Assembly: GCA_964588505.1 (NCBI GenBank)
Contig: CAZPPQ010000002.1
Location: 1-43,722, forward strand
From: an uncultured Gammaproteobacteria bacterium
GTDB lineage: Bacteria; Patescibacteriota; Patescibacteriia; UBA9934; GWF2-40-263
DNA: 43,722 bases
Reading direction: 5' to 3'
Shown: positions 3,301 through 42,820 of the stretch, piece after piece
Layout of the letters: each line of letters opens with the position of its first letter
How positions within the stretch are numbered: position 1 is the stretch's first letter
The notes under the pieces: model-generated
The model's database searches: none
Seen by the model: only the letters and a program-made list of their open reading frames with translations
What the model was told of the DNA's origin: nothing
Program-made: the position numbers and the translations under genes

Positions 3301-4243
3301 CATCATAGAGATACAACGAACTGATTGCGCTTGTCGAACCAAGACCGGACATCTTGACAGTAACTTCAGAAACCGACGTTGCGGAAGCAGACGACAAGCT
3401 GAACTTTAACAGCTTGACGCTGGTAGCCTTGTCGGCAATCGTTACGGCAGCCGGGCTGTCCGAAGCCAAGGAGACCGTGAGGGCTCCGGTGGTCGGAGTT
3501 ACTGCCGTGGCTGTCTGGGCCGTGTTGACAAGAGAAGCCTCGACGGCTGACACATCAGAACCTGCTGTCAAGCCGGAGACGCTGACCCCTGTCCCGTCGA
3601 GCAAAAAGCGGCTCTGGTAGCGGTTGGCTGTAAAGCCAGCGCTTGAAACCAAACGCTTCGTGCTGCCGGAAACGAGATAATTACTGCCGCCGCTTGAGAC
3701 CACAGCGCCATCATAGGCGCTCGCGGCGCTCGTAAGGGAGGCACCGACCGTGTAATCAACAAAGAACACATCCGGGACATCTTCCACGAACTTGTTCCAG
3801 TCACTACCGGCCAAGCCCTGCGCAACGGCTTCTGTTTCGATCCATCGTAGGGATCCACTGGAAGAAACAGCGTACACTTTTGGATCACTCTGGATCTTTA
3901 CCCAGAACGCGCCTGGGCGATAAACGACATTGCCACCAAGCGGGATAGCCGCAAGGTCGCTGTCAGAGAGAGTCTGGACACCCGAGAAGTCCGAATACCA
4001 TGTGAGGTACGTCTTCTCGTTCGGGAAAGCATAACGCTTGCTGTCGGCACCGTAGTAATACACGGTGTTCAGCGTCGTTCCTTTGACAAGGTCGCCCGGC
4101 GAAGCCGCGCGTGCCGTCAAAGGAGCCACGAACGCGGAAAAACCCACAGACCACAAAATCGTGGCTGCGGCGACCGCGATCGACAGCGTCCGCTTTCCCA
4201 TGCGAAGTGAATCGTTCATAAGGAAATTTTGGAACCTTTTCAA
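386..4243 (-). CDS. large secreted/cell-surface protein (1285 aa) with an N-terminal hydrophobic anchor/signal
   Basis: It is one uninterrupted 3.86-kb ORF. The N-terminus reads RTLSIAVAAATILWSVGFSAFVAPLTARA (signal-like). The body is S/T/A/G/D-rich and beta-repeat-like, with no catalytic motif seen. The ORF-track start is TTG; ATGs at 4219 and 4201 are alternatives. Confidence 0.8.
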   Translation of the reverse strand: MKRFQNFLMNDSLRMGKRTLSIAVAAATILWSVGFSAFVAPLTARAASPGDLVKGTTLNTVYYYGADSKRYAFPNEKTYLTWYSDFSGVQTLSDSDLAAIPLGGNVVYRPGAFWVKIQSDPKVYAVSSSGSLRWIETEAVAQGLAGSDWNKFVEDVPDVFFVDYTVGASLTSAASAYDGAVVSSGGSNYLVSGSTKRLVSSAGFTANRYQSRFLLDGTGVSVSGLTAGSDVSAVEASLVNTAQTATAVTPTTGALTVSLASDSPAAVTIADKATSVKLLKFSLSSASATSVSEVTVKMSGLGSTSAISSLYLYDGDTRLTVGRSLNSTSRTTSFGGLSVAVAAGAVKTLTLVADMADYSTSGETFAFEISAASSVKSAASVGGSFPVKGATMTTSATEVGSVTVTKGGTISNPNLGTKQHQAAEFKITAGSSEDVSIQRLKLAVGATATDHKNYTLWQNTTKVADGVVGSDYVIFTFSTPYALAQGNNRLFQVKVDVGGKSGDDIRFAFDENSDVYAVGAKYGFGVTVTKTAYDGITSSACNDATDECSWSDIQGGKVTFAFNGPSTTKISPNTTGVTLMKFTITSQTTADIRDIDFSIFASGTGLLGSDTAGTANYQNFRVINLATGSTVMGPEEFDDTIADGDGSGVANKEAVSFSDDFSMSAGQVLDLAILVDVKDTDANSSTYDIVDADTLTAMIEMDQVTARDVNNNDLTAGTDIVPSADITGNAMEVDASALTVALISPPSSKTVVQGSSDVDFLGMSFAAGSASYAKISAITLEGKGDADGTVAEVDMSMAERVSSCSIYDGITGVLIDGPESFASGSSGAKDVIFSGFSWTIPAGQTYKMLVRCNLANLTPETTISASDDIYTIEVDSTDDVTATDAEGNTISESGSDTINSAQGVAITVTSAGSLTTDLAADSPTGTIVLANSTGVTVSKFKFGATNEAIKITKVLLANGSSLDSSVTSVALEYKNQAGETKTSTSFLSSSAVTFENLDLYVPANDVAYLTVKVNMGEATTANTVSGDTISLDLDADGAAEFEAVGLSSGSTLTGASSGVDDVDAATHEVRKTKPTFSLASGSPSGASVPGLNEVFRFNVSADSRGTVTLDKMTFKLTASDNASSSWEECDTDAADALHIGDATEWEIYNANDSTIKLDADGTTPWTFFIDTGAACSTTTGDMSFMVVDFGASGGSIAAEEIAAGETKTYVLRFDSTGASSANDDTIRIEIPDQNEINSLSVGSGIGLDDDAAIQWDDSNLTNSDALNIDADYLKNLPVTGGTIIY

Positions 4244-9063: not shown

Positions 9064-10632
9064 TTATTTTCCAATTCGCTCGCCTTCGGCTCGCTCCACT
9101 CGGGGAATAACATCCGCACTCCGCGAATCCAACCCTGCCACGAATCCTCCGTACAGCCACAAATAAAACGCGAGCGTGCGGATTTCGAAAGAGGTCGCGA
9201 GAAACGCGTTGAACGCAACCCCGATCATCGCGGCCGCATAACCAATGGCAAGCGCGCGCGCGAACGGATCCTTTGCCGAGCGAAACACACGGATCGAGCG
9301 ACGAAACAGCGCGAGATACATCCATAAAAATAGAATCAAACCGATCGTGCCAGTTTCTCCCCAAAGCGCGAACCAGTTATTGTCAATGGATCCCTCGGTG
9401 CCAAACACGCCGAATGGCAATCCGAGCTGTTCGTACACGCGCGTGTTCCCAAGCGCGGCAACCGCTCCGCCGCCGAATTGCCCGGGTCCGAATCCAAACA
9501 TTGGGGACGCGGGAACAACCGTAAGCGGCGTCTGCGCCATCCAAAATAAACGACCAAGACCGTAATATTCCCCGCGCCACCGCGCGTAACTGAATGTTTC
9601 ATAAAATCGTTCGGCTAATGTCTGCCCTCTCGCCTCGGTGATGTTGCGAACGTTCAATCCGCTCACGCTGACATACAGCGTGAATGCGATAACGGCCGCG
9701 CCGAAGGCCCATGCGACTCGCCGATCCCGGAATGCCCACAAAGACACGAACAAAAATCCGATTAAAAACGCGAACCACGAAGATCTGGAATAGGTAAAAA
9801 TCAATGCAGCGATGCCGATCAAAAAAAGCGCAAATAAGGCGCGTCTGTGTTTGCGAAAAAAAGATGGATACAAAAATCCGGTGACAAGCAGAAGGAAAAA
9901 ATACAAAAATCCGCCGAGACGATCGTAACGCCCGAGGGTGCCGAACACGCGCGACCCGGGCTCCCAAAATTGTTCCACGGCCGCGGAAACAGTGATGTCT
10001 CTGACAGTGTATGTTTCAGAAGGAAGCAAAAAACGATCAAGCGGTTCGCCTACCGCGCGTTGTGCGATTCCGAGCAGTGATTGAAAAATTACAACGCAAA
10101 ATAACATAATCGTGAGCGACTGTATGTACGCGCGCGGCGGACGAAGATAATACGCGACAAAGAAAATAAGAATGAACCGCAAAATTTGTCTCGCACCGAG
10201 AATTGCGATTGCTGGAGGGACGGTATTTATGATGGCCGAGGCAACAAGCGCGATCAAAAATAAAATGAACGGGAGGTCAATCAGAGAGTGACGTGGCTTG
10301 ATGGATCCGGCGGCCATCTTAATCAGAACAACCGCGGCAAGCAGATAAATTAGGCCTTCGGAAGCGTAGCGCAGAAAAACAAACAACTCTGACGGACTGT
10401 ATTTCAAGATGACTGTTTCAAACGGCAGATAAACCGCGAGAAACATCAAAACCCAAAATGGACGACGGATGGCAAGCACGACAAACGCGAGTGTCCCAAG
10501 AGCCGCCGCGAGAAAAAGAGGAGAAAAAAAGGTCTGAAAGACAATAAGGAAACCGGCAAACACAAATAGACCGGCGGTTACGGCTGTGATGTGCACTTCA
10601 GCTCTTGTGTACACCGCGCGGAAATCAAGCAT
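9064..10632 (-). CDS. O-antigen ligase/polymerase-like (Wzy_C) polytopic membrane protein
   Basis: It has more than 10 hydrophobic segments and an FTYSRSSWFAFLIGFLF motif. The start is taken at the ATG at 10632; the ORF-track start at 10650 is a GTG that overlaps a TGnTACAAT box. Confidence 0.7.
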   Translation of the reverse strand: MLDFRAVYTRAEVHITAVTAGLFVFAGFLIVFQTFFSPLFLAAALGTLAFVVLAIRRPFWVLMFLAVYLPFETVILKYSPSELFVFLRYASEGLIYLLAAVVLIKMAAGSIKPRHSLIDLPFILFLIALVASAIINTVPPAIAILGARQILRFILIFFVAYYLRPPRAYIQSLTIMLFCVVIFQSLLGIAQRAVGEPLDRFLLPSETYTVRDITVSAAVEQFWEPGSRVFGTLGRYDRLGGFLYFFLLLVTGFLYPSFFRKHRRALFALFLIGIAALIFTYSRSSWFAFLIGFLFVSLWAFRDRRVAWAFGAAVIAFTLYVSVSGLNVRNITEARGQTLAERFYETFSYARWRGEYYGLGRLFWMAQTPLTVVPASPMFGFGPGQFGGGAVAALGNTRVYEQLGLPFGVFGTEGSIDNNWFALWGETGTIGLILFLWMYLALFRRSIRVFRSAKDPFARALAIGYAAAMIGVAFNAFLATSFEIRTLAFYLWLYGGFVAGLDSRSADVIPRVERAEGERIGK

Positions 10633-10640
10633 ATGAGGAT

Positions 10641-10649
10641 ATTGTAACA
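10641..10649 (-). promoter_or_regulatory. extended -10 box TGTTACAAT 8 nt upstream of the ATG (near-leaderless)
   Basis: The minus strand reads TGTTACAAT atcctcat ATG. No SD sequence lies between them. Confidence 0.4.
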
Positions 10650-10655
10650 CGGAGG

Positions 10656-10726
10656 GAGTTAGGGTGTTAGGGAGTTAAAGAAAATACGAAAGCCTAAATC
10701 CCTAAAGCCTAGAGCCTAAAGCCTAA
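10656..10726. repeat. inverted blocks of TTAGG-type 7-8-mer boundary repeats
   Basis: The left block is gagttagg gtgttagg gagttaaag. The right block is gcctaaa tccctaaa gcctaga gcctaaa gcctaa, the opposite orientation. Confidence 0.85.
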
Positions 10727-10727
10727 T

Positions 10728-10787
10728 AAAAAACTACCCCGAGAGAAGCGACCCGTTCCCGAAGGATTGGATCGCTCACTCTCGAGG
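10728..10787 (-). terminator. intrinsic terminator after the lipoprotein gene
   Basis: The minus strand reads cctcgagagtgagcgatcc...gggtcgcttctctcgggg tag TTTTTT, a long imperfect stem followed by a T-run. Confidence 0.5.
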
Positions 10788-10799
10788 CGAAGAAAAGAG

Positions 10800-12245
10800 C
10801 TACAGTGTGCCGGCTCCGACCACTCCGGTCTGAGTCACCTGCACGCGGAGCAAATAGTTGTCCCATGTTTGACCTGTGGGACGCGGCTGTCTGGCGCAGA
10901 ACGTACGCGCCGTGGCAGTACCGGAACGACACAGGTCGTCGTTTTCCCACCACCGAACGACTGCCGAAATGTCCGGAATGGTCTGGCTCGCGCCGTTCAC
11001 CGAGCTCACGAGCGTGAACTCGTAGAACCCGGGCGGCCACTTCACGAGGTCTGTGAAGTCGAGCGTGAACGCGCCGCTCGCGGGCGTGACAGAGTTCCTC
11101 GCGCGGAACGTCCAGTCAATTGTTCCATTGTCCGTGCCGACAATGAACGCCAGAGCAGACATGAACGGTTCGGAGATCATGCCGGTCGCGGAAAGAACGA
11201 TCGAACGACCCTGGATGTATACGTACGAGCTCCATGCGTCCGGAGGCGTTCCTGCATCCGCAGGCGAACCAGCATCGGTAATCGAGCCTGCACCTGCATC
11301 GGCGAGAACTCCGGCATCTACGATTGTACCCGCGTCGGAAACCGTACCTGCATCCACGAGATCCCCTGCGTCCGCGAGCGAAGAGCCCGCATCCACCGAG
11401 AACCCCGCATCCTCCAAAACGCCAGCGTCCACCGGACCAGCGTCTGTCAGAGTCCCTGCGTCCACGACCGGAGGAGATCCTGCATCGCCGACTGGCGCTC
11501 CGGCATCTGCGGACGAACCGGCATCTTCCGAAACACCGGCATCGCTCTGCGAAGAACCTGCGTCGGCAACGACACATCCGGTATGAATGGACGTGTTCGT
11601 GTCGTCGCAATCGCCGCTGACTTTCGAATAGCCGATGACGACAGAGGCGCATGCCTCGACGAACTGGTCGTCGCGGCCATATCCGTCCGCATCCGCATCG
11701 CGATACCATCGCGTGCGGTTTGCGACCGGACAAGGATCACCTGCATCTGGCGAACTCGCGCCGGCATCCTCCGGACCAGCATCCACGACAGAAATTGGTC
11801 CGGCATCGCTCGCGCTTCCGGCATCCGCAGGCGTGAATCCCACATCCGCCAGACCCGCGTCCGCACAAACTCCGCACACGCCGGCATCGCTCGAATCGAG
11901 CGGACCGGCATCCGGCGCCTGGGACTGCTCGCACGCGAGATCCTCGATGCGGTTGCAGTCTTCACGACGACCGTTTCCGCAGATTTCTGTCGCACCTGGG
12001 TATACCGATGCGAGTCCGTCATCGCAGTCGTCGCAAACCAGTGTGTAGCCAGCCGGAACGCCGCAGATCGTGGCGACCGTATTCGGGTCGCCGCGGCCGT
12101 CCCGATCGTGGTCATAGCACCACGATCGACAGGCCTCGGGCGGCTGACCATCGTCCGGCGCGTCGAACACGGCAGGACCTCCAATGTTGTCGCCGCAAGA
12201 AACGAAGAAAAGTGTGAAGGCCGACATTGCGAACTTGCGCGTCAT
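10800..12245 (-). CDS. GC-rich secreted lipoprotein with two MopE-like Cys/Asp motifs and about 26 DAG repeats
   Basis: The start is at the ATG at 12245, preceded by GGGAGGAG. The signal plus lipobox-like sequence is MTRKFAMSAFTLFFVSC. Motifs: CYDHDRDGRGD...CDDCDD...PGATEICGNG and WYRDADADGYGRD...GDCDD. A long DAGxxxxDAG array follows. Confidence 0.75.
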   Translation of the reverse strand: MTRKFAMSAFTLFFVSCGDNIGGPAVFDAPDDGQPPEACRSWCYDHDRDGRGDPNTVATICGVPAGYTLVCDDCDDGLASVYPGATEICGNGRREDCNRIEDLACEQSQAPDAGPLDSSDAGVCGVCADAGLADVGFTPADAGSASDAGPISVVDAGPEDAGASSPDAGDPCPVANRTRWYRDADADGYGRDDQFVEACASVVIGYSKVSGDCDDTNTSIHTGCVVADAGSSQSDAGVSEDAGSSADAGAPVGDAGSPPVVDAGTLTDAGPVDAGVLEDAGFSVDAGSSLADAGDLVDAGTVSDAGTIVDAGVLADAGAGSITDAGSPADAGTPPDAWSSYVYIQGRSIVLSATGMISEPFMSALAFIVGTDNGTIDWTFRARNSVTPASGAFTLDFTDLVKWPPGFYEFTLVSSVNGASQTIPDISAVVRWWENDDLCRSGTATARTFCARQPRPTGQTWDNYLLRVQVTQTGVVGAGTL

Positions 12246-12348
12246 TTTCGTTCTCCTCCCGCTTTTTAGCGGAAAATGGGGTGATTTCGTTTGTTTGTTT
12301 TGTTCCGAATTGTGAAAGGATTGTTCCAAGTTTCGAAAGGAACGGTTC

Positions 12349-12376
12349 AGTATAGCAAAATGGTGAAAAAAGTCAA
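12349..12376 (-). promoter_or_regulatory. sigma70-like promoter (TTGACT-16-TATACT) for the lipoprotein gene
   Basis: The minus strand reads TTGACT tttttcaccattttgc TATACT. The leader to the ATG at 12245 is about 95 nt. Confidence 0.55.
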
Positions 12377-12413
12377 TATCAGCCTATTCGAATGGCTAAA
12401 ATTAGGCAAATCT

Positions 12414-12459
12414 GTCATTGCGATCCGCCACAGGCGGAGAAGCAATCTCAATCTAGGTG
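12414..12459. repeat. partial copy of the GTCATTGCGA...GAAGCAATCTC palindromic element family
   Basis: gtcattgcga-tccgcc acag gcgga-gaagcaatctc-aatctaggtg shares its blocks with the full element at 34203-34323. The ftsW/rodA stop codon lies inside it. Confidence 0.7.
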
Positions 12460-16640: not shown

Positions 16641-17133
16641 GTAAGGAGAGCGAGCAAATCTGTTGCTCGTTTTTTCATAGTCTTGAGATCTGTATTTGTA
16701 TCGAGCAGGTGAATCTCGGTGCCGCAATGCTCGAACAGTGTACGAAACCAGTTGCTCAAAAACCGTTCCTGCACGCGCATGAGGTATGCGAGATCTCCGA
16801 ACACGCCACGCGATTCGTCGCCGCGACCTTTCAACCGTGCGACAGCTATCTCCGGAGGGAGATTCGTTATGATGAATCGTACGCCTTGCTGTCATCGCGA
16901 GAAAGCTCGTTCCGGATGGCCGCGCCGATCCACCGGCGCGTCGGTTCGTAAGTGACGTAGACATCGAAATCACGAACCTCCTCAAAACGGGGAGGGTGCG
17001 TTTCTGTCAATTCCCATCTTGACAGTTCGAACACGCGCTTTCCTTCTGTACGCATGGCTTCGGCTTTTGCGCGGATAATCGTTGACTTTCCGCTTCCGGC
17101 GATCCCGTCAAAGACGATCAGTTTTCCGTTCAT
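16637..17133 (-). pseudogene. internally deleted, frameshifted paralog of the Tmk-like kinase at 23374-24093
   Basis: The N-fragment MNGKLIVFDGIAGSGKSTI...YVTYEPTRRWIGAAIRNELSRDDSKAYD matches residues about 1-87 of the intact paralog. It then jumps in the +1 frame directly to FIITNLPPEIAVARLKGRGDESRGVFGDLAYLMRVQERF..., which corresponds to paralog residues about 160-239. The central part, about 70-75 aa, is missing. Confidence 0.8.
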
Positions 17134-17223
17134 GGGTTTCTCCTTTTTGCCCAAAAACAAGTGCAGAGGTCTCTGTAATTTATCCGCGTGTATCCTTTAC
17201 GTCAATCGGTTTATCAACAGCCC

Positions 17224-19927: not shown

Positions 19928-19954
19928 AAAAAAACCGCACCTGTTTAGGTGCGG
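19928..19954 (-). terminator. intrinsic terminator of the PRTase-like gene
   Basis: The minus strand reads ccgcacc taaaca ggtgcgg followed by TTTTTTT. The stop codon lies in the loop. Confidence 0.65.
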
Positions 19955-20577
19955 GAAGGCGCTAAGTCACGCGCCTGAATCAAGAAGTCGACAAGTTCAG
20001 AGTCGTGTGGAAACAACTGTTTCCTCATCTCCTCTTCTGTCAGCCCCTCGAGCTCGTGGCTCAAGTAGTGCAACCACGGGTCATCTTCAGGTTTCCGAAG
20101 CTCATAACACTGGTGCCAGAAGTCCGGCACAACGAGCGGCGGCGGGTTGAGATAGATCCGTCTTTTGTAGTCATGAACCGCAACCTTGATGTCATTTCTT
20201 GGAATTCCCTTGTTCATAATGATGCCTACAAGGTGGCTGATCGTGAGACCGCGATCGTACACATCGTCTAGGAAAAGAACTCTGTCTCCACAGCGCAAGT
20301 GATCGGGATGATAGGTCCAGCCCTCGACACGAACCTCTTCTCGTTCCCCAATGCCTGTGTAGGAACGGGCTGTCACGGCCGCGAAGAGAATACGGCGAAG
20401 TTCCGGGTGCTCCGCCCGCACCCACTTGAAAAATTCGCTGATCGGATTTCCTGTATTGGCCCCTCCGCGAAGGACGATGTAAATCACATCAGGATAGAAT
20501 CCGCTGGCATAAATTTGAGCGCCCAATCGAAAAGAATTGTTACGCATCGTCTCGGGACTGATGAACACTTTGTGCAT
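19945..20577 (-). CDS. type I phosphoribosyltransferase-fold protein (Gpt/Hpt-like)
   Basis: FYPDVIYIVLRGGANTGNPISEFF and the PRPP-loop-like sequence RVLFLDDVYDRGLTISH are present. The start is taken at the ATG at 20577 (MHKVFISPE), with GGAGG 6 nt upstream. The ORF-track TTG at 20589 lies within that SD. Confidence 0.6.
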   Translation of the reverse strand: MHKVFISPETMRNNSFRLGAQIYASGFYPDVIYIVLRGGANTGNPISEFFKWVRAEHPELRRILFAAVTARSYTGIGEREEVRVEGWTYHPDHLRCGDRVLFLDDVYDRGLTISHLVGIIMNKGIPRNDIKVAVHDYKRRIYLNPPPLVVPDFWHQCYELRKPEDDPWLHYLSHELEGLTEEEMRKQLFPHDSELVDFLIQARDLAPSRT

Positions 20578-20670
20578 TTGGTCCTCCAAACCACGCGAGG
20601 TGGTTTCGACACTTTAGACGATCTTCATAAGGTGTACAAGTCCGGCCTTATGCCTTAGGATAATCGGCAT

Positions 20671-21327
20671 ATGTCTGTCCTTACGCGCTTTGCGATTCAA
20701 AAAATCATCAAAGATGGTGGGATTGTTTTTGATCCGCCGCTCGATGCCTTTCAACTCCAGCCGCATGCCGTGGATTTGCGCCTTGGTTATAAATTTCTCA
20801 TCCCGCGCAACTGGACCATTGATGATCGAGGCCGCCGCGCAATCAGCATTTCGATTGATCATCCGGAAGCTTATCAAGGCCAATTCGATGAAGTTGTGTT
20901 AAAGCATGGCCAATACTTCGAGCTCCTCCCGAACGAATTCGTGATTGGCACATCGCTTGAATATGTCGAGATGAACGCGCCAAACTTGATGGCCCTGCTC
21001 TTTCCGAGAACATCCACAAACCGGCGCGGTATTGATCTCTCTCTTTCCGGCATCATAGACGCCGGATACAAGGGGCGGCTTATCTTTCCGATGAAAAATG
21101 AGGCTGGCAATCAGGTGCTGCGCATCTACCCGGGCGAACGCGTCTGCCAGATCATTTTCGAAGAACTCTCTTCTCCGCTCACGAAAGAAGAAACAACTCA
21201 ACATGGAGTCGCCCCGGCAAAATACAGCGGCCTTGAAACGAATGGGTTTAAGCTCGATAAAGACGAAGAAAGACAAATTCTGATCAAGGGACAAATTGAA
21301 GAACTGAAAAAACGGTTCGGGATCTAA
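20671..21327 (+). CDS. Dcd/dUTPase-superfamily protein; predicted dNTP pyrophosphatase rather than dCTP deaminase
   Basis: The N- and C-termini are Dcd-like (QPHAVDLRLGYKF; PAKYSGLETNGFKLDK). The core reads GIIDAGYKGRLIFPMKN and PGERVCQIIF. Pro sits where E. coli Dcd has the catalytic Glu138 (VLEFYN), and the PGERxxQxIF motif is dUTPase-like. Confidence 0.7.
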   Translation: MSVLTRFAIQKIIKDGGIVFDPPLDAFQLQPHAVDLRLGYKFLIPRNWTIDDRGRRAISISIDHPEAYQGQFDEVVLKHGQYFELLPNEFVIGTSLEYVEMNAPNLMALLFPRTSTNRRGIDLSLSGIIDAGYKGRLIFPMKNEAGNQVLRIYPGERVCQIIFEELSSPLTKEETTQHGVAPAKYSGLETNGFKLDKDEERQILIKGQIEELKKRFGI

Positions 21328-21839
21328 AAAAGGCCGAGGCGTTTGCGGACTTCGTCAGGATAATCCGCCAGTGTTTCGCGATACACGTTTTCACGGCTGA
21401 AAAGCTCGTGAGCGTTTTCGACGAGATACGCGTCGCTGATTCCGGCATCTATCAACACATTCCAGCACGGCTCACACATCCACCAGTGGCCATACATATA
21501 CACATCCGCGCCTTCGGTCGGAATATTTGCTTCGCGCGCGACTTTCATCAACATGGGTTCCGAATGTCCTTCCGCATCGTGCAAATGACAAAGATCATAA
21601 CCTTCGCCGGTTTTGCATCCGGCCAAAATACGCGGGCACAGATGTTTTTGCGGTTTCTGATTAAACCCGTTCCCTGCGCGCGCGATCACTTCGCCGCCGC
21701 GCGCTAAAACAATTCCAACCGGAAACAGCGAATCGCCTGCGCATTCCGCGCGCGCTTTCGCGGCCGCCTGCATACACGGATGGTCTGCCGGAACAAATTT
21801 GAACGCGTAACCATGAGGGAGATAGGGATATCGCACCAT
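21324..21839 (-). CDS. CDA-fold (dCMP deaminase-like) zinc deaminase
   Basis: Segments: VGIVLARGGEVIARAGNG, HSE (the H[AS]E zinc/catalytic motif), and MCEPCWNVLIDAGI (CxxC). It has a 4-nt convergent overlap with the Dcd-family gene. Confidence 0.7.
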   Translation of the reverse strand: MVRYPYLPHGYAFKFVPADHPCMQAAAKARAECAGDSLFPVGIVLARGGEVIARAGNGFNQKPQKHLCPRILAGCKTGEGYDLCHLHDAEGHSEPMLMKVAREANIPTEGADVYMYGHWWMCEPCWNVLIDAGISDAYLVENAHELFSRENVYRETLADYPDEVRKRLGLF

Positions 21840-21853
21840 AGGTTCAATAGGAC

Positions 21854-22360
21854 CTATTTTTTTACTCGATAATGCAGTAAAACTGCCTGCATTCCGAGTT
21901 GGGACATTTCGACAAACTCCAAATTCACGCGCCCAAAATCTTTTGTGAGGGGGAGACCATTTCCGAACAGATACGGCTCGATGGTCACAAAAATCTCATC
22001 AACGAGTCCGCCTGCCAAAAATTGGCTGTACACTGATGCACCACCGCACACGGCTAAACTAACAACACCTTCTCGGTTCAGCCGATCCACAAGTTGGGCC
22101 GGCGACTCGGTCGTGAATTCGACCCCTTCAAGAGTCGGATTCTCTTCGCCGGGAAACGACAGCACAAATATCTTACGATCCTTGAGCGGCTTACCGATGG
22201 TCTGAAATGTCTTTCGCCCCATCACGATGATACCGATCTCTTTTGTCTTTTTCACGAAAAATTGCAGATCCTCTTTTGAAGTCCACACCAAAGAACTCTG
22301 TGCGGCAGATTCGGCGATCTTTCCATCAAGAGAAGTGGCGACGATCAGGAAAACAATCAT
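21854..22360 (-). CDS. RibD C-terminal domain / dihydrofolate reductase-family protein
   Basis: Segments: MIVFLIVATSLDGKIA, WTSKEDLQFF, IIVMGRKTFQTIG, and CGGASVYSQFL. It lies immediately downstream of the TS homolog. Confidence 0.7.
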   Translation of the reverse strand: MIVFLIVATSLDGKIAESAAQSSLVWTSKEDLQFFVKKTKEIGIIVMGRKTFQTIGKPLKDRKIFVLSFPGEENPTLEGVEFTTESPAQLVDRLNREGVVSLAVCGGASVYSQFLAGGLVDEIFVTIEPYLFGNGLPLTKDFGRVNLEFVEMSQLGMQAVLLHYRVKK

Positions 22361-22446: not shown

Positions 22447-23286
22447 TTAATACACATTCACCGTAATCGGAATATCTTTGATTGAATCCATTGGTTGATA
22501 CTGCGATTTAAGCTGATCAAACAGCTCTTGCACAAGAGCCGCGTCCCCATTCACGGCCCTGTCATAACTCCCGGGCGGCACGACGAGCTTGATTGGAAGA
22601 TGCTCGTTCGCGCGCGCGATAATTTCGCGCGCCGCGTTAAAATGATTATCGTAAATGTGCGCATTGCTGATGGAGTGCGTGTAAATGCCGGGCCGGACTC
22701 CAAGCCGTTCGGCAAGGATGCTTTGCAGGAGCGCGAATCCGGCCGCATCGTGCGGACATCCGAGCACCATATCATTGCTCCGAATGATATTGTGCAGGTG
22801 CAGTCTTCCTCCCGCGATATTCACGGTAAACGAATACGGACACGGTAAATTTTTCTTCGCATCCGCGCGCAATCCGTCGTCAGCCGGATCCCACGTAATG
22901 ATCACACCGTGACGCGAAGACGGATTTTGCGCGAGATGATCCATGAGCATTTCGATCTGGTTGCGCCCGAAATGTTTGCGCCAACGATACCCATACGCGG
23001 CCTTGATCATCCCATCCTCCTCTCGAAACGAATCCCACACCGGAGTGAACTGCCGGAGCCATGTCGGATCATTCGACCCCTGCAAAAACCAAAGCTGTTC
23101 CGCGATAAAAAGTTTGAGTGGAATTTTTCGCAGGGTAAGAAGCGGAAAACTTTCTTCCGTATCCACGCGCAATGTTACGCCCGGCAACATGCGCGGCGTG
23201 CGCCCGGACCACGGATTCGGCTGATCAATACCGTGTTCGAGGATGTCGCGAATTGCTGTTTGGTATTGCGCATCAAAGGGAGTCAT
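22447..23286 (-). CDS. thymidylate synthase (ThyA) family enzyme with Asp at the Asn177-equivalent position; substrate uncertain (dCMP/dUMP)
   Basis: ThyA-like segments: FPLLTLRKIPLKLFIAEQLWFLQG, YGYRWR, NPSSRHGVIITWD, the catalytic Cys in LPCPYSF, IRSNDMVLGCPHDAAGFALL, SNAHIYDNH, and a ThyA-like C-terminal tail. Confidence 0.85.
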   Translation of the reverse strand: MTPFDAQYQTAIRDILEHGIDQPNPWSGRTPRMLPGVTLRVDTEESFPLLTLRKIPLKLFIAEQLWFLQGSNDPTWLRQFTPVWDSFREEDGMIKAAYGYRWRKHFGRNQIEMLMDHLAQNPSSRHGVIITWDPADDGLRADAKKNLPCPYSFTVNIAGGRLHLHNIIRSNDMVLGCPHDAAGFALLQSILAERLGVRPGIYTHSISNAHIYDNHFNAAREIIARANEHLPIKLVVPPGSYDRAVNGDAALVQELFDQLKSQYQPMDSIKDIPITVNVY

Positions 23287-23373: not shown

Positions 23374-24093
23374 ATGTCCTCTGGACGTTTTATTGTCGTG
23401 GATGGCATTGCCGGAAGCGGCAAGACTTCCATTCTTGATGCGGCCTCGGTGTGGGCAAAAACTTGCAACCACCGAATTTTCGATTTACGGACTTGGGAGG
23501 AGGAGCGTGGAACAGCTCCGCGCTTCGAGGATGTGCCGAATCACGACGTGTATTTTACGTATGAACCGACGCGTGTTTGGATCGGCGCGGCCATCCGGCA
23601 CGAACTTTCCCGCAAAGACACGCCGTACGATGGGAAGACGCTTGCACACGTTTTTGCCGCTGATCGTCTCATTGCCTATCGGCGCCTCGTCATTCCGGCG
23701 CTCGAAGCCGGAAAAATCGTGATTCAAGATCGAAGCGTCTCCACATCAATTGTCTATCAGCCGATCATGCCGGACGGATATTCGCTTGAGGAACTCCTCG
23801 CGCTTCCGGGCAACGCGCTCGCCATGCAATATCCGCCGAACCATTTGATTCTCACGCGTCTGCCGCCGGAAATGGCCGTTGATAGACTCGGGGGGCGACA
23901 AGAGGAATCACGAGGAGTGTTCGCCGAGCTCGAGTATCTAAAACGCGTTCAAGCAAGATTTGAAAGCGATTGGTTCCGCAAATTGTACGAGTCGCGTGGC
24001 ACACGAATTCACTTTCTCGACACGAGCGTTGAAAAGGAACGGATGATCATGAACGCAAAAACCATCATTGATCACATTTTAACGACTTGTTAG
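23374..24093 (+). CDS. tmk: thymidylate kinase-family (d)NMP kinase
   Basis: The P-loop is VVDGIAGSGKTS. Also present are FTYEPT, AADRLIAYRRLVIPALEAGKIVIQDRSVSTSIVYQ (the DR/YQ motifs of Tmk), and a lid-like GGRQEESRGVFAE. Confidence 0.75.
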   Translation: MSSGRFIVVDGIAGSGKTSILDAASVWAKTCNHRIFDLRTWEEERGTAPRFEDVPNHDVYFTYEPTRVWIGAAIRHELSRKDTPYDGKTLAHVFAADRLIAYRRLVIPALEAGKIVIQDRSVSTSIVYQPIMPDGYSLEELLALPGNALAMQYPPNHLILTRLPPEMAVDRLGGRQEESRGVFAELEYLKRVQARFESDWFRKLYESRGTRIHFLDTSVEKERMIMNAKTIIDHILTTC

Positions 24094-30456: not shown

Positions 30457-32340
30457 ATGCCTTCAGCCAACCCAGAACGCCGCCAGTCTCCAGAAGGAGA
30501 AAAATGGAAGCCGGAAGCGGCCAAAACTCCGGAACACGCCGAGCGCGAAGAACTGCACATTCCAGAAGTCGGAGAAACATTAAAAATTTATGATGCCTCG
30601 GGCAATGAACAGAGCGAGGTTGTTGTTGGGGCAGATAAAAAAGAAGGCATTGTCATTGTCGGCCACGAGACAAGCGGCGCGCCGCGAGTGCGCGAGATTA
30701 TGCCGGGCGAATCCAATTCGCGCGAACGGGCCGAAGAAATGAATGAAAAATTGAATAAGGCTTTTGAAGCGGCCGTTGATGCGACAATCAAAGCGTTTGG
30801 ATTGAAAGGAAAAGAGGCGAAAAATACCCGCGCCAAACTTGGAGAACACCGCGCGCTCATTGTCGCAAAAGCCGCGTCTATGGACGCGCCGGAAGCCGCG
30901 CTGATGGGTTCTGTTGAAGCGCTCACGCACGAAAAGAAGGAAACAAAAGAGGCTGAAAAAAAAGCGAGAATGGAACGTGGGGTGCAAGAAACTCGTCTCG
31001 AAGTTTTGTCGAAACGCGAGGAGGTCGTGCGACTGCGAGCGGAAATCCAGCAAGCGGAAAAAACGGAAAATGAAGCGGTATATAAAAAAGCGAGAAGGGC
31101 TTTTGACAAAGCGTCGAAAAGTCTCCATCTGCAGGAACGCGCGCTTGTCCAACTTGAAAGCTATCTGCGACCCGAGGAACCGAAAGAAGAAATCGTTGAT
31201 GAAGTTGAGGGCACCGTCGAACTCAAACCAAAACCTGTCTATTCCGAAGGGGTCACGGATGTGGAAAATGCCATCGATTTTTCCGAAACTCGCATGCGGG
31301 ATCTGGATAAGGTTCTCCAAAAAGACCCGAAAAATGTCACGGCGCTCAACGAGTGGAATTTATTGAATCATGAGCGCACAGCCGACCGTGTTGTTCTGGA
31401 ATCCCTAAAACGGAAAGAGGACAAGGAACGAAAAGAAAAAAAAATCGAAGCGCTCCGAGCCGAAACAGAAGCTATGGATAAGAAAGAGTTGGCAGAAGCG
31501 AAAAAAGAGATGAAGACGGCCGAGAAAGCGAAAGACGACAAAAAGGCCGAACAATTGCTTGCCAAAATCCATGAACTGGAAAATCCTGCGGAGGACACGA
31601 AAGAAATCAAAGCGCTTAAAGCGGAAATCGCCGAGATTGATGCCAAAGAAGCGAGGCTCGCCGAAGCGGATTGGGAAGGATTCAACGTCATTTCCAAAAG
31701 CGGCGAAGCGCCGGCTCCGGAAGCGCCGTATCTTGATGAAGAGGTGTTGAGCCAACCGCCGCCAGTTCCGGAGGAGATAAAAGCGGATTCGCTAGCGGAA
31801 GATGAAGCACGACAAAAAGAAAAAACGCTCCGTGGAATTTTGGAAAATATTCAAGGGAACAGACGCGGCCCACAACTAAAACCTGCAGAACCCATCAAGG
31901 AAGAAGAGCTGGAGATAGACACAAGCGAATTTGAGAAAAAACCGGAAGCCAGAAAAAAAGAGGGGCCTATTCCGGAAGAGGAGCCGGCGCCAGGTTCAAG
32001 AGCTGAAAAAAACGATGTAAGAAAAGTGGTCGCGAATGTCGCGGAACAACGATTAAAAAAGGAAGAAGAAGCGCACCAAAAAATGTTGCTGGAAGCGTCG
32101 AAAGGGCTCGATATCCCGGCTTCCAAAATTGAAATAGCTATGGCCGCTTTCAAAAACGCAAGACTGTGGGAGAGATTCCGCACAGCAGAAGACAAAATTC
32201 CGGAAAAAAAGTGGCCCGCAAAACTAAATCCATTCAAAAAAGAAAAATCCGAGCGGCAAAAAATATGGGGAGAGATTCAAGCCGCGGCAAAAGAAGCAGG
32301 TATTGACCTCACGAAAGCCGGCAAAAAACGCGCGCGATAA
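30457..32340 (+). CDS. K/E-rich coiled-coil-like hypothetical protein (627 aa)
   Basis: It is a long ORF with a highly charged low-complexity (K, E, A) composition. The antisense ORFs within it are composition artefacts. No TM segment or catalytic motif was seen. Confidence 0.6.
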   Translation: MPSANPERRQSPEGEKWKPEAAKTPEHAEREELHIPEVGETLKIYDASGNEQSEVVVGADKKEGIVIVGHETSGAPRVREIMPGESNSRERAEEMNEKLNKAFEAAVDATIKAFGLKGKEAKNTRAKLGEHRALIVAKAASMDAPEAALMGSVEALTHEKKETKEAEKKARMERGVQETRLEVLSKREEVVRLRAEIQQAEKTENEAVYKKARRAFDKASKSLHLQERALVQLESYLRPEEPKEEIVDEVEGTVELKPKPVYSEGVTDVENAIDFSETRMRDLDKVLQKDPKNVTALNEWNLLNHERTADRVVLESLKRKEDKERKEKKIEALRAETEAMDKKELAEAKKEMKTAEKAKDDKKAEQLLAKIHELENPAEDTKEIKALKAEIAEIDAKEARLAEADWEGFNVISKSGEAPAPEAPYLDEEVLSQPPPVPEEIKADSLAEDEARQKEKTLRGILENIQGNRRGPQLKPAEPIKEEELEIDTSEFEKKPEARKKEGPIPEEEPAPGSRAEKNDVRKVVANVAEQRLKKEEEAHQKMLLEASKGLDIPASKIEIAMAAFKNARLWERFRTAEDKIPEKKWPAKLNPFKKEKSERQKIWGEIQAAAKEAGIDLTKAGKKRAR

Positions 32341-34419: not shown

Positions 34420-34545
34420 GAGACCTCTAAAAAATCGATGGATTTTCGGTGAATGGGGTAGCCAGCCTCCGAGACGTACTAGAACGTACGTTGAGGAGGT
34501 AGCGGGGCCCCATGAGCCGAAAAGACGCGATTTTGCAGAGGTCTC
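34420..34545. other. 126-nt rod-like extended hairpin
   Basis: Nested pairings: gagacctct/agaggtctc, aaaatcg/cgatttt, ttttcgg/ccgaaaa, tgggg/cccca, cctcc/ggagg, and acgtac/gtacgt around the apical loop tagaac. The right arm abuts the stop codon of the upstream gene. Confidence 0.7.
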
Positions 34546-35678
34546 TACTCAATTTCCACAAAAATATGATCCGTGAGGCGAGGGACGCGCTTCACCCAAA
34601 ACGGAAAAAACTCGACGATGACATCCGAAGCTACGCCATCATCCAAGACAAGCGCCTTTTTGACATCCTCGGCCGTCATGCCGGCAAACCGTGACGGATT
34701 CAATTTTGCGCTGGTGGTCGAGGCAACGGTGCGGCCATCCAAATACACGCGTAGACTCGCGGTTTCGTTCATCACATCCACTTTGTCCGCGACTAATTGT
34801 AATCCTTCCATATTCATTTCGACGAACCTCCTCCCACTTCCCAATTCATTATACAAACGCGTGGCCGCGACTTCCTCGGCCGTATTGCGATCAAAAAATA
34901 CGCCGGTTACACGAGCCTTCATCCGGACGGTAAATTCGTCCGCAGAAGCGCCGACTTTTACACTCGACTCCTGATCGGACACCTGTACCTGAAACGTTTC
35001 GCCGGTGTACATGGTTCCGACTGATTCACGAAGCATGACCTTTGCATCTGTTTCCAAGTCCGCTTTCAATTTCGCAAAAGCTGAATCAATATCGGATTGA
35101 CCGATCGCTTTGGTCGCCACCACTCCGCCAGTGAACGACTCGACGCTATCCGCATACACAAATTCCTGCCGCGCCACTGCAAGGCCAGGAATCGTAAACT
35201 TTATCGGGCCGATATTTCCGGAATCGCCAGGCTTGTCCGCGTGCGCGTCAACAGTCTTTTCTCCGCGAGCCGGAATAAGAATCGTCTCATCAATGCGGAA
35301 TAACACGCCTTCCGGAGAAAGCAGGCGTGTGCGTACGACAAGCTCCTGTTCGCTACCAGACGTATTGTGAATCGTCACTTTTCCATGCGCGATCGCGTCC
35401 ACCATTGTTGTTCCATCTCCGCCCGGCTTTGCGGTTTCAGTCTTTTCCAGAACACGAGAAGCGACACGGCCGCGCACCTCGGTCGGACGCGTCGGAATTT
35501 TTACGACATCAAGCAAAAAATCTGTCTTGATAGTTTCGGCCGTTGTTTTCACGCGGATCGTGGCGCGCATGATTGAAAGATAAACAACGGCAAACAGGAC
35601 AAACAAAACAATAACAAGAAAACTCACGGCAATCCGGCGATAGAGACGCAAAGACGGCCCCCTTGCTTTTGGTGTCAT
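34545..35678 (-). CDS. hypothetical membrane-anchored protein
   Basis: One N-terminal TM (IAVSFLVIVLFVLFAVVYLSI) is followed by a beta-rich domain of about 330 aa. The start is taken at the ATG at 35678 (MTPKARG); the ORF track extends to a TTG at 35747. Confidence 0.65.
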   Translation of the reverse strand: MTPKARGPSLRLYRRIAVSFLVIVLFVLFAVVYLSIMRATIRVKTTAETIKTDFLLDVVKIPTRPTEVRGRVASRVLEKTETAKPGGDGTTMVDAIAHGKVTIHNTSGSEQELVVRTRLLSPEGVLFRIDETILIPARGEKTVDAHADKPGDSGNIGPIKFTIPGLAVARQEFVYADSVESFTGGVVATKAIGQSDIDSAFAKLKADLETDAKVMLRESVGTMYTGETFQVQVSDQESSVKVGASADEFTVRMKARVTGVFFDRNTAEEVAATRLYNELGSGRRFVEMNMEGLQLVADKVDVMNETASLRVYLDGRTVASTTSAKLNPSRFAGMTAEDVKKALVLDDGVASDVIVEFFPFWVKRVPRLTDHIFVEIE

Positions 35679-35746
35679 GTCTATTCGTCGTGTTCTGGCT
35701 GATTTCGGAGTCACAGGAATGTGAAATGATGTGCGTTGATTAAACA

Positions 35747-35771
35747 ACGCCCTAAACCCCTAACGCCCTAC
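35747..35771. repeat. TTAGG-type boundary repeats (CCTAA orientation)
   Basis: The sequence acgccctaa acccctaa cgccctac lies immediately after the dnaE stop codon. Confidence 0.8.
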
Positions 35772-40405: not shown

Positions 40406-42820
40406 TTATGTCCGTAGTATACCACCAAACTCTTGCTCAAGCACGCGGCGGACGACGGCAAGCTCGCAATCAACCTCTTCGGACGAGAGCGTCCGGTCAT
40501 CCGCGCGAAATGTCATGTGCATGGCGACCGACTTCTTGCCTGCCGGAATATTTTGACCGCGGTACAGATCGAACAATTCCACCTCGCGCAACAACGGCGA
40601 CGCTTCCTTTATTTTTTTTACGATGTCGGCGTAGACCGCGCGCTCGCCGAGAACCACGGCTAAATCGCGCTTAACTTCAGGATAGGACGGAACGGCCGTA
40701 TACCTCTGTTTGTACGAAGCAAACTCTGCGAGTCTTTCAAAAGCGATGTCCGCGCAAACCACGTCGCTTTCAACACCGAACGCGCGGGAAGTTATAGGAC
40801 CTATCTGACCAATAAGACCTATAGGAACTGAATTAATGACAATTTGCGCTGTGCGCGTCTGATGCCATTGCGCAGAAACACTCGCAGGACGATCCCATTT
40901 CCATTCGCGGATGCCCATTTCACGGAACAGCCGTTCGAGCATCCCTTTCACGGCTTTAAACCCTTTGTCTCCGGAAACTCCGTACTTCACGACAGCAAGC
41001 CGGAGCTCTTGATCTGGAATATCGTCCGCGTGCGCAAGATGCACTGTGCCGATTTCAAACAGCGCCGCGTTCCGAATTCGTCGTTCGTTCACCTCCACGG
41101 CTGAAAGAATTGATGGAAGAAGCGAAGGACGAATGAGCGCCTGATCGCTCGCAAGCGGATTTTGGATGCGAACCGCGAATTCCGGATCCATGCCGTATTT
41201 CGACAATTCCGCGTCGGACGTAAAGTTCATGCCGTACAATTCCAAAAGTCCGGCGCCGCGCAAAAGCTCTTTTGCACGCCGTTCCCACACAATGACCGGA
41301 TCAGCCGCGCCAGGCGCTACCTCGCCGACCGGCAGAACTGACGGAATGTTCGAGTAGCCATACAGCCGCGCAATCTCCTCTACAAAATCCCGCGAGCCTT
41401 CGATATCTCGGTCGCGCCAATACGGGACTGCCACTTGATAGGTCTTATGGGATCTATCGGACATATTGGACCTATCTTTTTCCAGTAAAAACCCAAGTCG
41501 CTTCAACATGCCAACCATTTCTTTTGCCGGCAATTCCACGCCCATCAACGCCTGCGCCTTCGCTGGATCAAACGTAACATGCGGCGCCGTGTATGGCTTC
41601 GCCTCGAACGAAGAAACAGTGGAAGCGACGCGGCCGCCCGCGACTTTCAAAATCAATTCAACGGCGCGAGCCAATGCCGCGCGTGTGGCTTGCGGCGACA
41701 ATCCTTTTTCAAACAGCTGGGACGAATCCGAGGCGAGATTCAACGTGCGTGCGGTCTTGCGGACCGAAACTGGATGGAACGTCGCGGATTCCAAAATGAT
41801 GCGCGTTGTTTTTTCCGTGGTGCCGGTTGCTTCACCTCCCATCACGCCAGCGATTGCGACCGGGCGATCCGCGTCGGCAATCACAAGCATCGCGTCAGTA
41901 AGCGCGTATTCCTTTCCATTAAGCGCGAGAATTTTTTCTCCGGTTCGTGCGCGCCGCGCAACGATTTTCCCGCCATGCAGAGTATCAGCGTCAAACGCGT
42001 GCATCGGCTGGCCGAGCTCGTGCAAAACATAATTCGTCACATCCACGATATTGTTGATCGGCCGATGGCCAGCGAGCAATAATTTCTTTTGAAACCACCA
42101 CGGCGACGGCCCGACCTTTACTCCATCAATCGCCACTGCCTCATATTTCAAACACAGATCCGGCGCGTCGACGGAAACCGAAACCGCGCCATCAGCGGCC
42201 GGAATCTCTTTTGTCTTCCACGCAAACCGGTCGCCGGTCGCCGCGCTTCCCTCGCGCGCCTGACCGACAATACTCATACAATCCGGCCGGTTTGATGTAA
42301 CTTCGACATCAAACACAACCTCATCCGCCAAATCCAACGCTTCGGCAAGCGGTGTGCCTGGCTTTGCGCGCGTAACTTTCGATAAATCCCAAATCTCATG
42401 ATTACCCTGGATCAATTTATCAAACCCCAATTCACTAGCCGCGCAAATCATACCAGCGCTTTTGACGCCGCGGATTTCCGCCGGCTGCAATTCCACCCAA
42501 TCGCCCTCGCCGTGCCATTTCACTTTTGCGCCCGGCAATGCGACCGCGACTTTCTGCTTTTTTTTCAAATTCGTTCCGCCGCACACGACCTCGACGATTT
42601 CCGAACCGAGATCCACTTCGACCAGCCGAAGTTTGTCCGCGTTCGGATGCGGCTTCAAACTTTTCACCCGTCCGAGCACCATACGCGCCATGGCCGGAGC
42701 GAACGCGCGCATGTGTTCCACACTGTTCCCTGCAGCCGTCATTTTTTCCGCAAAAACATCATACGGCAGATTCGTCTTTAAAAATTCTTTAATCCAGTCG
42801 TAGGAGGTAAGAATGTTCAT
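40406..42820 (-). CDS. pheT: phenylalanine--tRNA ligase beta subunit
   Basis: Segments: MNILTSYDWIKEFL, the tRNA-binding domain GRVKSLKPHPNADKLRLVEVDLG, B3/4 and B5 domains, and a C-terminal FDX-ACB-like region DLYRGQNIPAGKKSVAMHMTF. Confidence 0.95.
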   Translation of the reverse strand: MNILTSYDWIKEFLKTNLPYDVFAEKMTAAGNSVEHMRAFAPAMARMVLGRVKSLKPHPNADKLRLVEVDLGSEIVEVVCGGTNLKKKQKVAVALPGAKVKWHGEGDWVELQPAEIRGVKSAGMICAASELGFDKLIQGNHEIWDLSKVTRAKPGTPLAEALDLADEVVFDVEVTSNRPDCMSIVGQAREGSAATGDRFAWKTKEIPAADGAVSVSVDAPDLCLKYEAVAIDGVKVGPSPWWFQKKLLLAGHRPINNIVDVTNYVLHELGQPMHAFDADTLHGGKIVARRARTGEKILALNGKEYALTDAMLVIADADRPVAIAGVMGGEATGTTEKTTRIILESATFHPVSVRKTARTLNLASDSSQLFEKGLSPQATRAALARAVELILKVAGGRVASTVSSFEAKPYTAPHVTFDPAKAQALMGVELPAKEMVGMLKRLGFLLEKDRSNMSDRSHKTYQVAVPYWRDRDIEGSRDFVEEIARLYGYSNIPSVLPVGEVAPGAADPVIVWERRAKELLRGAGLLELYGMNFTSDAELSKYGMDPEFAVRIQNPLASDQALIRPSLLPSILSAVEVNERRIRNAALFEIGTVHLAHADDIPDQELRLAVVKYGVSGDKGFKAVKGMLERLFREMGIREWKWDRPASVSAQWHQTRTAQIVINSVPIGLIGQIGPITSRAFGVESDVVCADIAFERLAEFASYKQRYTAVPSYPEVKRDLAVVLGERAVYADIVKKIKEASPLLREVELFDLYRGQNIPAGKKSVAMHMTFRADDRTLSSEEVDCELAVVRRVLEQEFGGILRT

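Follow-up and report, generated by a model that had tools for sequence, protein, structure and literature searches.

The window, a 43,722-nucleotide stretch of chromosomal Patescibacteria DNA that is Uhrbacteria-like in character and carries gyrB, nusG, L11, L1, gatB, miaA, thrS, dnaE and pheT, contains at positions 22447-23286 (minus strand) a gene for a homologue of thymidylate synthase (TS) in which the residue that discriminates uracil from cytosine is Asp rather than Asn. Judging from sequence, we consider it probable, with considerable room for doubt, that this protein methylates dCMP to 5-methyl-dCMP, and does so as the methylation step of a housekeeping thymidylate pathway of Patescibacteria. 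The making of thymidine nucleotides via 5-methyl-deoxycytidine (5-methyl-dC) nucleotides has until now been described from phages alone. Enzymes of this type are already on record, both in phages and as engineered mutants of ThyA; what appears to be undescribed is the presence of an Asp-bearing ('D-type') TS as the conserved 'ThyA' of Patescibacteria, together with a deaminase-dead homologue of dCTP deaminase (DCD) and a private deaminase family. Our literature search, which was narrow, found no paper describing this pathway in cellular organisms, and none of its top-ranked matches joined dCMP with Patescibacteria.

The TS gene and the codons on which the argument turns are as follows.

22447-23286, minus strand: TS-family 'D-type' protein of 279 amino acids with an ATG start, a predicted dCMP C5-methyltransferase (5-methyl-dCMP synthase) dependent on 5,10-methylene-tetrahydrofolate (CH2-THF)
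22837-22851, minus strand: N146-L147-P148-C149-P150, comprising the nucleophile Cys, Asn at the position of E. coli Leu143 and Pro at that of His147
22840-22842, minus strand: Cys149, equivalent to the E. coli nucleophile C146
22783-22785, minus strand: Ile168, equivalent to E. coli Gln165, which in ThyA orients Asn177
22747-22749, minus strand: Asp180, the uracil/cytosine discriminator, equivalent to E. coli Asn177

That the protein is a ThyA homologue along its whole length, as a preliminary description of the window had claimed, is borne out by a match of 176.5 bits to PF00303 (Thymidylat_synt) over residues 7-231 and by an AlphaFold2 model (pLDDT 91.5, pTM 0.91) with a TM of ~0.8 to full-length ThyA structures. 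The protein also passes the NCBIfam model TIGR03284 (thym_sym), at 122.5 against a cutoff of 108.35, and possesses the C-terminal tail and full-length architecture of ThyA. The motifs quoted in that description, LPCPYSF, RS.D (R169-S170-x-D172) and AHIYDNH (H210-x-Y212), were all found in the translated open reading frame (ORF), and the catalytic and folate-binding residues E58, W80, Y94, C146, R166, S167, D169, H207 and Y209 (E. coli numbering) are retained. Hence, the features by which we recognise the ThyA fold (PF00303, Cys146, E58, W80, Y94, D169, H207 and Y209) are present throughout.

The residues that read the base are a different matter. When the protein was compared by phmmer with solved ThyA structures, the segment RSNDMVLGCPHDAAGFALL was aligned to its ThyA counterpart, and Asp180 therefore occupies the position of E. 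coli Asn177; the computed alignments placed Asp, and not Asn, at the discriminator, in agreement with what had been proposed from inspection. The sequence of T4 gp42 that had been quoted for comparison, MRSNDVVFGFRNDYA, is an exact match to PDB 1B49, and its Asp179 shares the column of Asp180. Alignment likewise confirmed each of the three further substitutions that had been listed, from E. coli to the window, namely His147 to Pro150, Phe176 to His179 and Gln165 to Ile168. Five co-varying changes relative to ThyA can be recognised (L143N, H147P, Q165I, W83F and N177D), and the diagnostic combination of ThyA, Asn177 with Gln165 and His147, is replaced by Asp180, Ile168 and Pro150. The residue comparison therefore shows a catalytic core that is intact and a set of O4/N3-H uracil-reading residues that have all been swapped. 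These residue identities are established by the present analysis, as is their conservation.

Asp180 is no chance or private substitution. Asp occurs at position 177 in all 120 of the closest homologues (55-100% identity), every one of which reads RSNDxxLGxPxD and whose named members belong to Uhrbacteria, Kerfeldbacteria, Paceibacterota and other Patescibacteria. Of 1.84 billion cluster representatives (50% identity) searched exhaustively, the best 150 were inspected. They comprised 117 with Asp, 23 with Asn and 10 in which the motif was unreadable; the Asn forms among them begin at ~142 bits and below, so that D-type sequences outrank N-type ones. The accompanying positions vary with the discriminator, as listed here in E. 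coli numbering.

Position 143: Leu in 19/22 Asn-type ThyA; Asn in 29/29 Patescibacteria Asp-type; Asn in 80/94 other Asp-type; Asp in T4 gp42
Position 147: His in 21/22 Asn-type; mostly Pro in Patescibacteria Asp-type; mostly Pro in other Asp-type; Thr in T4 gp42
Position 165: Gln in 17/22 Asn-type; hydrophobic in Patescibacteria Asp-type; mostly hydrophobic in other Asp-type; Met in T4 gp42
Position 83: Trp in 20/22 Asn-type; Phe in 22/23 Patescibacteria Asp-type; Phe in 92/100 other Asp-type; Val in T4 gp42

Position 143 was read by anchoring on the catalytic Cys and by HMMER pairwise alignment, both of which give Asn146 in the window; a MAFFT alignment that placed Leu at this position was rejected as a mis-registration. 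Asp172, the counterpart of E. coli Asp169, is retained in the window protein and invariant in the family.

Among phages, the best matches to the protein are TS homologues that come from Bosavirus, Pamexvirus and related siphoviruses; LPYD is present in all three of those that were read. Phage Xp12 (MT664984, a Bosavirus) has a single annotated TS-family gene, at 45326-46195, which bears RSSDLFVGLPYD and is 36% identical to the window TS (E 2e-52). Its flanking genes encode a PRA-PH-type pyrophosphatase (annotated HAD), a dCMP deaminase and a dihydrofolate reductase (DHFR); the first of these, the 'hydrolase (HAD superfamily)' at 46207-46980 (minus strand) upstream of the TS homologue, is a PRA-PH/MazG-type pyrophosphohydrolase on the evidence of a 55.7-bit match to PF01503. 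A neighbour-joining tree separates E. coli-type ThyA from a single group that unites the Patescibacteria and phage Asp-type TS, including that of Xp12; bootstrap support for the group was moderate (65/100) when column 177 was removed. The Patescibacteria sequences form a subclade of their own, and no sequence in the tree is more distant than T4 gp42. The grouping with Xp12, at this moderate support, is an observation of the present analysis.

These relatives matter because the phage enzymes have been characterised by others. TS genes on cytosine-modified viral contigs mostly encode Asp177, with positions 177 and 147 the two most discriminating (PMC8670742), and TS mutants carrying N177D or N229D lose activity on dUMP and gain activity on dCMP (PMC8670742, PMC13326640). 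In E. coli, 5-methyl-deoxycytidine (5mdC) was produced by the Xp12 homologue and, of seven metagenomic homologues with Asp177, by five (bioRxiv 10.1101/2024.12.05.627091). A residue code has been put forward in which N177D confers use of dCMP, an acidic residue at 143 hydroxymethylation, and D169N a 5-hydroxy product (PMC13326640). Since the window TS has Asp177, Asn143 as in Xp12 and Asp169, this code predicts a dCMP methylase. Asp at 177 combined with a non-acidic 143 (Asn146) and with Asp172 is the pattern of a 5-methyl-dCMP synthase. The change of substrate to dCMP suggested in the preliminary description is likewise supported, by the clade-wide Asp, the loss of the O4/N3-recognition set and the Xp12-type relatives, all of which point in the same direction. 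What others have shown, the production of 5-methyl-dC and deamination selective for 5-methylcytosine (5mC), pertains to phage homologues only. Patescibacteria and cellular genomes go unmentioned in these three sources (PMC8670742, bioRxiv 10.1101/2024.12.05.627091, PMC13326640), and the Pfam table of the MetaGPA supplement gave no decisive sign of Patescibacteria contigs in either the modified or the unmodified set.

The genes around the TS gene in the window are these.

21854-22360, minus strand: DHFR-like protein, 168 amino acids (DHFR_1 64.7 bits, RibD_C 70.3 bits)
21324-21839, minus strand: divergent CDA-fold zinc deaminase, 171 amino acids, with H92-S-E94 and C122-E-P-C125 (PF00383 26 bits)
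20671-21327, plus strand: DCD-like protein, 218 amino acids (PF22769 91.9 bits; TIGR02274 93.5 against a cutoff of 92.8)
23374-24093, plus strand: dTMP kinase (TMK), 239 amino acids, divergently transcribed from the TS gene (TIGR00041 97.8 against a cutoff of 83.25)

This arrangement is conserved. We scanned TS loci from one genome per species, obtaining 80 loci from Uhr-, Kerfeld-, Magasanik-, Woese-, Colwell-, Doudna-, Dojka-, Harrison- and Paceibacteria and Saccharimonadales, and based counts on the 41 with 5 kb or more to either side. In these fully flanked loci the TS gene is accompanied by a deaminase (40/41), DHFR (40/41), a DCD-like gene (35/41), TMK (34/41) and dUTPase (13/41); SHMT and FolD are present in some Patescibacteria TS clusters. 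The gene cluster, too, is established here, and it has the constitution of a gene module, in which DHFR and deaminase each accompany 40 of the 41 TS genes; its putative pyrophosphatase and its deaminase are analogous, but not orthologous, to those of the phages. Three unrelated kinds of protein occupy the deaminase slot: a stand-alone CDA protein, a CDA protein fused to a nucleoside 2-deoxyribosyltransferase-like (NDT) domain, and, in Kerfeldbacteria, an amidohydrolase fused to NDT. Because the function is kept while the protein is swapped, we argue that the deaminase is an obligatory partner. The CDA-NDT fusion, with NDT represented by PF05014, occurs in many Uhrbacteria (for example, loci L004/L005, 9381-10295, plus strand), and the Kerfeldbacteria protein (locus L008, 9569-11314, plus strand) combines PF01979 with PF05014 in place of the CDA deaminase. 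In these fusions the PF05014 domain could serve regulatory nucleotide binding or the hydrolysis of dNMPs.

The adjacent DHFR-like gene reported in the preliminary description is real, and it would recycle the dihydrofolate (DHF) produced by a reductive methylase; its presence beside TS in 40 of 41 loci is as expected for a DHF-forming methylase. This bears on the idea that the protein adds something other than methyl to C5, either as a dCMP or CMP hydroxymethylase of the T4 gp42 or MilA type, or as a 5-hydroxy-dCMP synthase. Asp at 177 is common to the hydroxymethylases and the 5-hydroxy-dCMP synthase and so speaks for this idea, which we nevertheless regard as very improbable, the least credible of the readings discussed here. 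Position 143, acidic (Asp/Glu) in hydroxymethylases and represented by Asp145 in gp42, is Asn146 in the window, and Asp172 is retained where a synthase of the RB69 gp48 type has D169N. Moreover, hydroxymethylases have no need of the DHFR that almost always adjoins these genes, the architecture is that of full-length ThyA in contrast to the 246-residue gp42 type, and gp42 lies farthest away in the tree. The preference for reductive methylation over hydroxymethylation voiced in the preliminary description is therefore supported, by Asn at 143, the retained Asp169, the adjoining DHFR in 40/41 loci and the grouping with Xp12.

Chief among the competing readings is an ordinary thymidylate synthase that converts dUMP to dTMP in a pocket tolerating Asp (for example, in protonated form), supplied with dUMP from dCMP by the deaminase, and it fits the cluster equally well. 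TS homologues of this kind are annotated as thymidylate synthase everywhere, the TIGR03284 cutoff is passed, and papers on Patescibacteria treat thyA as canonical. The neighbourhood is that of a classic thymidylate cluster, with DHFR, TMK, dUTPase, SHMT and FolD, and the dUTPase implies that dUMP is made. We nonetheless judge this reading unlikely. The N177D/N229D mutants have exchanged dUMP for dCMP activity (PMC8670742, PMC13326640); Asp is here joined by the loss of His147, Gln165 and Leu143, and hence of the whole uracil-recognition set; and the same signature in Xp12 and in metagenomic phage enzymes gives 5mdC (bioRxiv 10.1101/2024.12.05.627091). Furthermore, an adjacent deaminase is almost always found with viral D-type TS and almost never with the N-type. 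This last contrast comes from IMG/VR loci flanked in both directions by 4 kb or more of sequence, comprising 57 with Asp-type TS and 56 with E. coli-like Asn-type TS:

Deaminase within 4 kb: Asp-type 48/57 (42 adjacent); Asn-type 2/56
PRA-PH/MazG within 4 kb: Asp-type 49/57; Asn-type 2/56
DHFR within 4 kb: Asp-type 41/57; Asn-type 17/56

The published association of deaminases with Asp-type TS, in which co-localised deaminase genes were found on 70% of modified and 6.1% of unmodified contigs (bioRxiv 10.1101/2024.12.05.627091), is thus independently reproduced in the IMG/VR loci. Neither thyX nor a second thyA was found, whether in the window itself or across the 84 loci that this search covered.

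The products of the neighbouring genes suggest how methylation of dCMP might be put to use. In the DCD-like protein the catalytic Glu138 (E. coli numbering) is replaced by Pro140 (codon 21088-21090), alignments with PDB entries showing 'ifPmkn' against 'vlEfyn', 'tlElsn' and 'tlElfn' in the dCTP deaminases of E. coli, M. tuberculosis and a third solved structure. Pro is found at this site in 63 of 64 neighbours of D-type TS and in 118 of 120 close DCD-like homologues, and the nucleotide-binding residues R110, S111/S112, R115 and D128 are kept. Because it lacks Glu138, the protein is unable to deaminate by the known mechanism, and most plausibly it hydrolyses a dNTP as a putative dCTP or dUTP pyrophosphatase. 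Conversion of dCTP to dCMP, which we propose, would mirror the action of the phage PRA-PH enzyme; the alternative is a second dUTPase. Databases label the protein dCTP deaminase, and it barely passes the TIGR02274 cutoff; the PHROGs labels for the cluster genes are merely generic ('thymidylate synthase', 'dCTP deaminase').

A search of the PDB with the single sequence of the window deaminase returned no significant match; a profile of its family found dCMP deaminases as the best PDB matches (2HVV at 3e-11 and 4P9C at 7e-10, also 1VQ2 and 2W4L). Membership of the Xp12-type deaminase lineage was considered for the Patescibacteria protein and rejected, the score against the phage type being 12 bits. 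We propose that it acts as a 5-methyl-dC nucleotide deaminase that would give a thymine nucleotide. Alignment of the kinase to S. aureus TMK shows F..R and DR...S..YQ preserved, which we take to be the thymine-binding motifs, and these canonical features of a dTMP kinase, with the passing of its equivalog cutoff, point to dTMP as the product of the cluster. Given the deaminase, the deaminase-dead DCD homologue and the dTMP kinase, dTMP is the probable end product.

From these observations we infer what the TS protein acts on, what its three neighbours do and how the steps are ordered, in a route that would lead from dCTP through dCMP, 5-methyl-dCMP and dTMP to dTDP, reversing the textbook order. 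The DCD-like protein, a proposed pyrophosphatase without the deaminase Glu, would first convert dCTP to dCMP. The D-type TS would then use 5,10-methylene-THF to turn dCMP into 5-methyl-dCMP, releasing DHF to be recycled by the adjacent DHFR. The divergent dCMP-type deaminase would convert the 5-methyl-dC nucleotide to a thymine nucleotide, and dTMP kinase would finally raise dTMP to dTDP. In the most economical reading, drawn by analogy, the cluster would be a cellular, housekeeping counterpart of the phage module, assembled partly from non-homologous parts. In the phage case, one TS-linked deaminase converts 5mdCTP to dTTP, TS-linked deaminases are selective for 5mC, and the authors propose a supply of dT that bypasses dUMP-dependent TS (bioRxiv 10.1101/2024.12.05.627091).

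The phage analogy could be carried further, to a cell in which 5-methyl-dCMP is mainly phosphorylated and incorporated, with 5mC replacing much or all of the cytosine as it does in phages Xp12 and PaMx74, where replacement is complete (bioRxiv 10.1101/2024.12.05.627091). In function the cluster copies the set of phage genes (for a pyrophosphatase, an Asp-type TS, a deaminase and a DHFR) that accompanies full replacement; dCTP would be depleted by the DCD-like protein, and the 5mdC pool would be tapped for dT by the deaminase. In addition, Asp177 TS genes in viromes are mostly on cytosine-modified contigs (PMC8670742), and the phage deaminase requires 5mdCTP, implying a pool of that nucleotide (bioRxiv 10.1101/2024.12.05.627091). 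Set against this, our literature search gave no report of globally 5mC-substituted cellular DNA, and a cell, unlike a phage, must replicate stably with a mutagenic base. The neighbouring kinase scores above the equivalog cutoff for dTMP kinases and has canonical residues for binding thymine. Among the genes of the cluster there was no sign of a promiscuous dNMP kinase, and T4 gp1 was required in E. coli for 5mdC to enter DNA (bioRxiv 10.1101/2024.12.05.627091). The G+C content of the window is ~51% and C to T decay is not apparent, which is weak evidence. On balance we find this fate of 5-methyl-dCMP improbable, and we would give slightly less credence still to the full claim that Patescibacteria with the cluster maintain a pool of 5-methyl-dCTP and exchange much or all of the cytosine in their genomes for 5mC at the nucleotide level.

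Several considerations weigh against a housekeeping pathway through 5-methyl-dCMP. Its support comes from sequence and from phage analogues; identity to the validated phage enzymes is ~36%, and monophyly of the D-type clade is moderately supported (65%). The cluster also fits a route from dCMP through dUMP to dTMP, because a deaminase beside thyA would be useful either way, and in the 13 of 41 clusters with a dUTPase the dUMP formed would be without a consumer if the TS rejects it. The DCD-like protein could be a dUTPase of archaeal type and no dCTPase, while the characterised phage deaminase acts on the triphosphate and not the monophosphate (bioRxiv 10.1101/2024.12.05.627091). The viral contrast between D-type and N-type neighbourhoods is phylogenetically non-independent, because the N-type set (E. 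coli-like only) forms one cluster when TS proteins are grouped at 50% identity, leaving a Fisher test without power (p = 0.33). The absence of thyX and of an N-type thyA holds for the window and the loci scanned. Finally, one locus, L081 (JBAZBY010000001.1), has an Asp-type TS with no deaminase beside it.

L081 is a 1.03 Mb Patescibacteria contig and the only fully flanked locus without a deaminase. Its deaminase slot (11409-12431, plus strand) contains a second, very divergent TS-family protein of 340 amino acids (PF00303, 29.5 bits), which appears to be without the nucleophile Cys (..SVPPYQFF..). Elsewhere in the window, a 97-residue ORF at 16867-17160 (minus strand) was caught by the iterated TMK profile with 116 bits, probably through profile drift via fusion proteins. 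Between L1 and the DCD-like gene lies a 214-residue ORF (19945-20589, minus strand) with faint similarity to HGPRT (NCBIfam E ~1e-3), a counterpart of which was seen in one other locus, L011. Two ORFs of ~500 residues, 10767-12269 (plus strand) and 10800-12329 (minus strand), overlap almost completely on opposite strands in the stretch of highest G+C (0.565, bin 10001-12000); a Pfam match, to a MopE-type metal-binding motif, was obtained only on the latter. Three large ORFs have no Pfam match: 386-4243 (minus strand, 1285 residues), 30457-32340 (plus strand, 627 residues) and 34545-35747 (minus strand, 400 residues). At 42817-43617 (minus strand), overlapping the start of pheT by 4 bp, is a gene for an MvaI/BcnI-family restriction endonuclease (PF15515, 223.7 bits); only 105 bp of the window lie upstream of this gene, and a partner methyltransferase encoded there would fall outside it. 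Scans of the window for tRNA genes and Rfam families found nothing.

If the proposed pathway is real, a whole bacterial radiation makes thymidylate by methylation of dCMP followed by deamination, bypassing the dUMP route, and both 'thyA' and the neighbouring "dCTP deaminase" are mis-assigned in the databases and metabolic reconstructions of those genomes. A pathway that has been regarded as an anti-restriction device of phages would become part of core cellular metabolism, raising the question of whether the phage or the cellular version came first, and methylome-sequencing tools would gain new 5mC-directed deaminases and a natural dCMP methylase. Were the far less likely replacement of genomic cytosine true, a trait of phages Xp12 and PaMx74 would for the first time be known from cellular life.

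Among known systems, the closest is the 5-methyl-dCMP synthase of the Xp12 type, which shares with the window TS the fold, the catalytic Cys, Asp169 and the combination of N143, P147, a residue other than Gln at 165, F83 and D177. The modules are also alike in that DHFR and deaminase adjoin the TS gene, in the inclusion of a dNTP-pyrophosphatase-like gene and, in the logic that we propose, in obtaining dT nucleotides by deamination of 5-methyl-dC nucleotides. They differ in that the window TS, only ~36% identical to that of Xp12, belongs to a subclade confined to Patescibacteria chromosomes, near ribosomal-protein, gyrB and gatB genes; in that the pyrophosphatase candidate has a DCD/dUTPase fold where that of Xp12 is PRA-PH/MazG; and in that the deaminase is of a different CDA lineage (the 12-bit score above) or an amidohydrolase. 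The Patescibacteria cluster includes a canonical dTMP kinase, and of the two systems it is that of Xp12 for which 5mC-substituted DNA is reported. ThyA of E. coli and L. casei, at 25-35% identity, is similar in fold, length, C-terminal tail, nucleophile Cys and pairing with DHFR, and in the folate and hydride-transfer residues E58, W80, Y94, D169, H207 and Y209, but Asn177, His147, Gln165, Leu143 and Trp83 are all replaced in the window TS, the phosphate-binding Arg127 is His, and Arg21 is Trp in its subgroup; in these respects the protein is closer to the engineered N177D/N229D dCMP methylases than to wild-type ThyA. T4 gp42 (PDB 1B49/1B5E) has in common with it the discriminator Asp, a non-His 147, a non-Gln 165 and, as predicted for the window TS, dCMP as substrate; gp42 differs in having Asp at 143, which admits water, in its length of 246 residues and in forming THF rather than DHF, and it is far more distant. 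Lastly, the DCD-like protein shares its fold and R110, S111/S112, R115 and D128 with the dCTP deaminase Dcd and the bifunctional DCD-DUT, but with Pro in place of catalytic Glu138 in 63 of 64 cases these proteins resemble dUTPases at that site.

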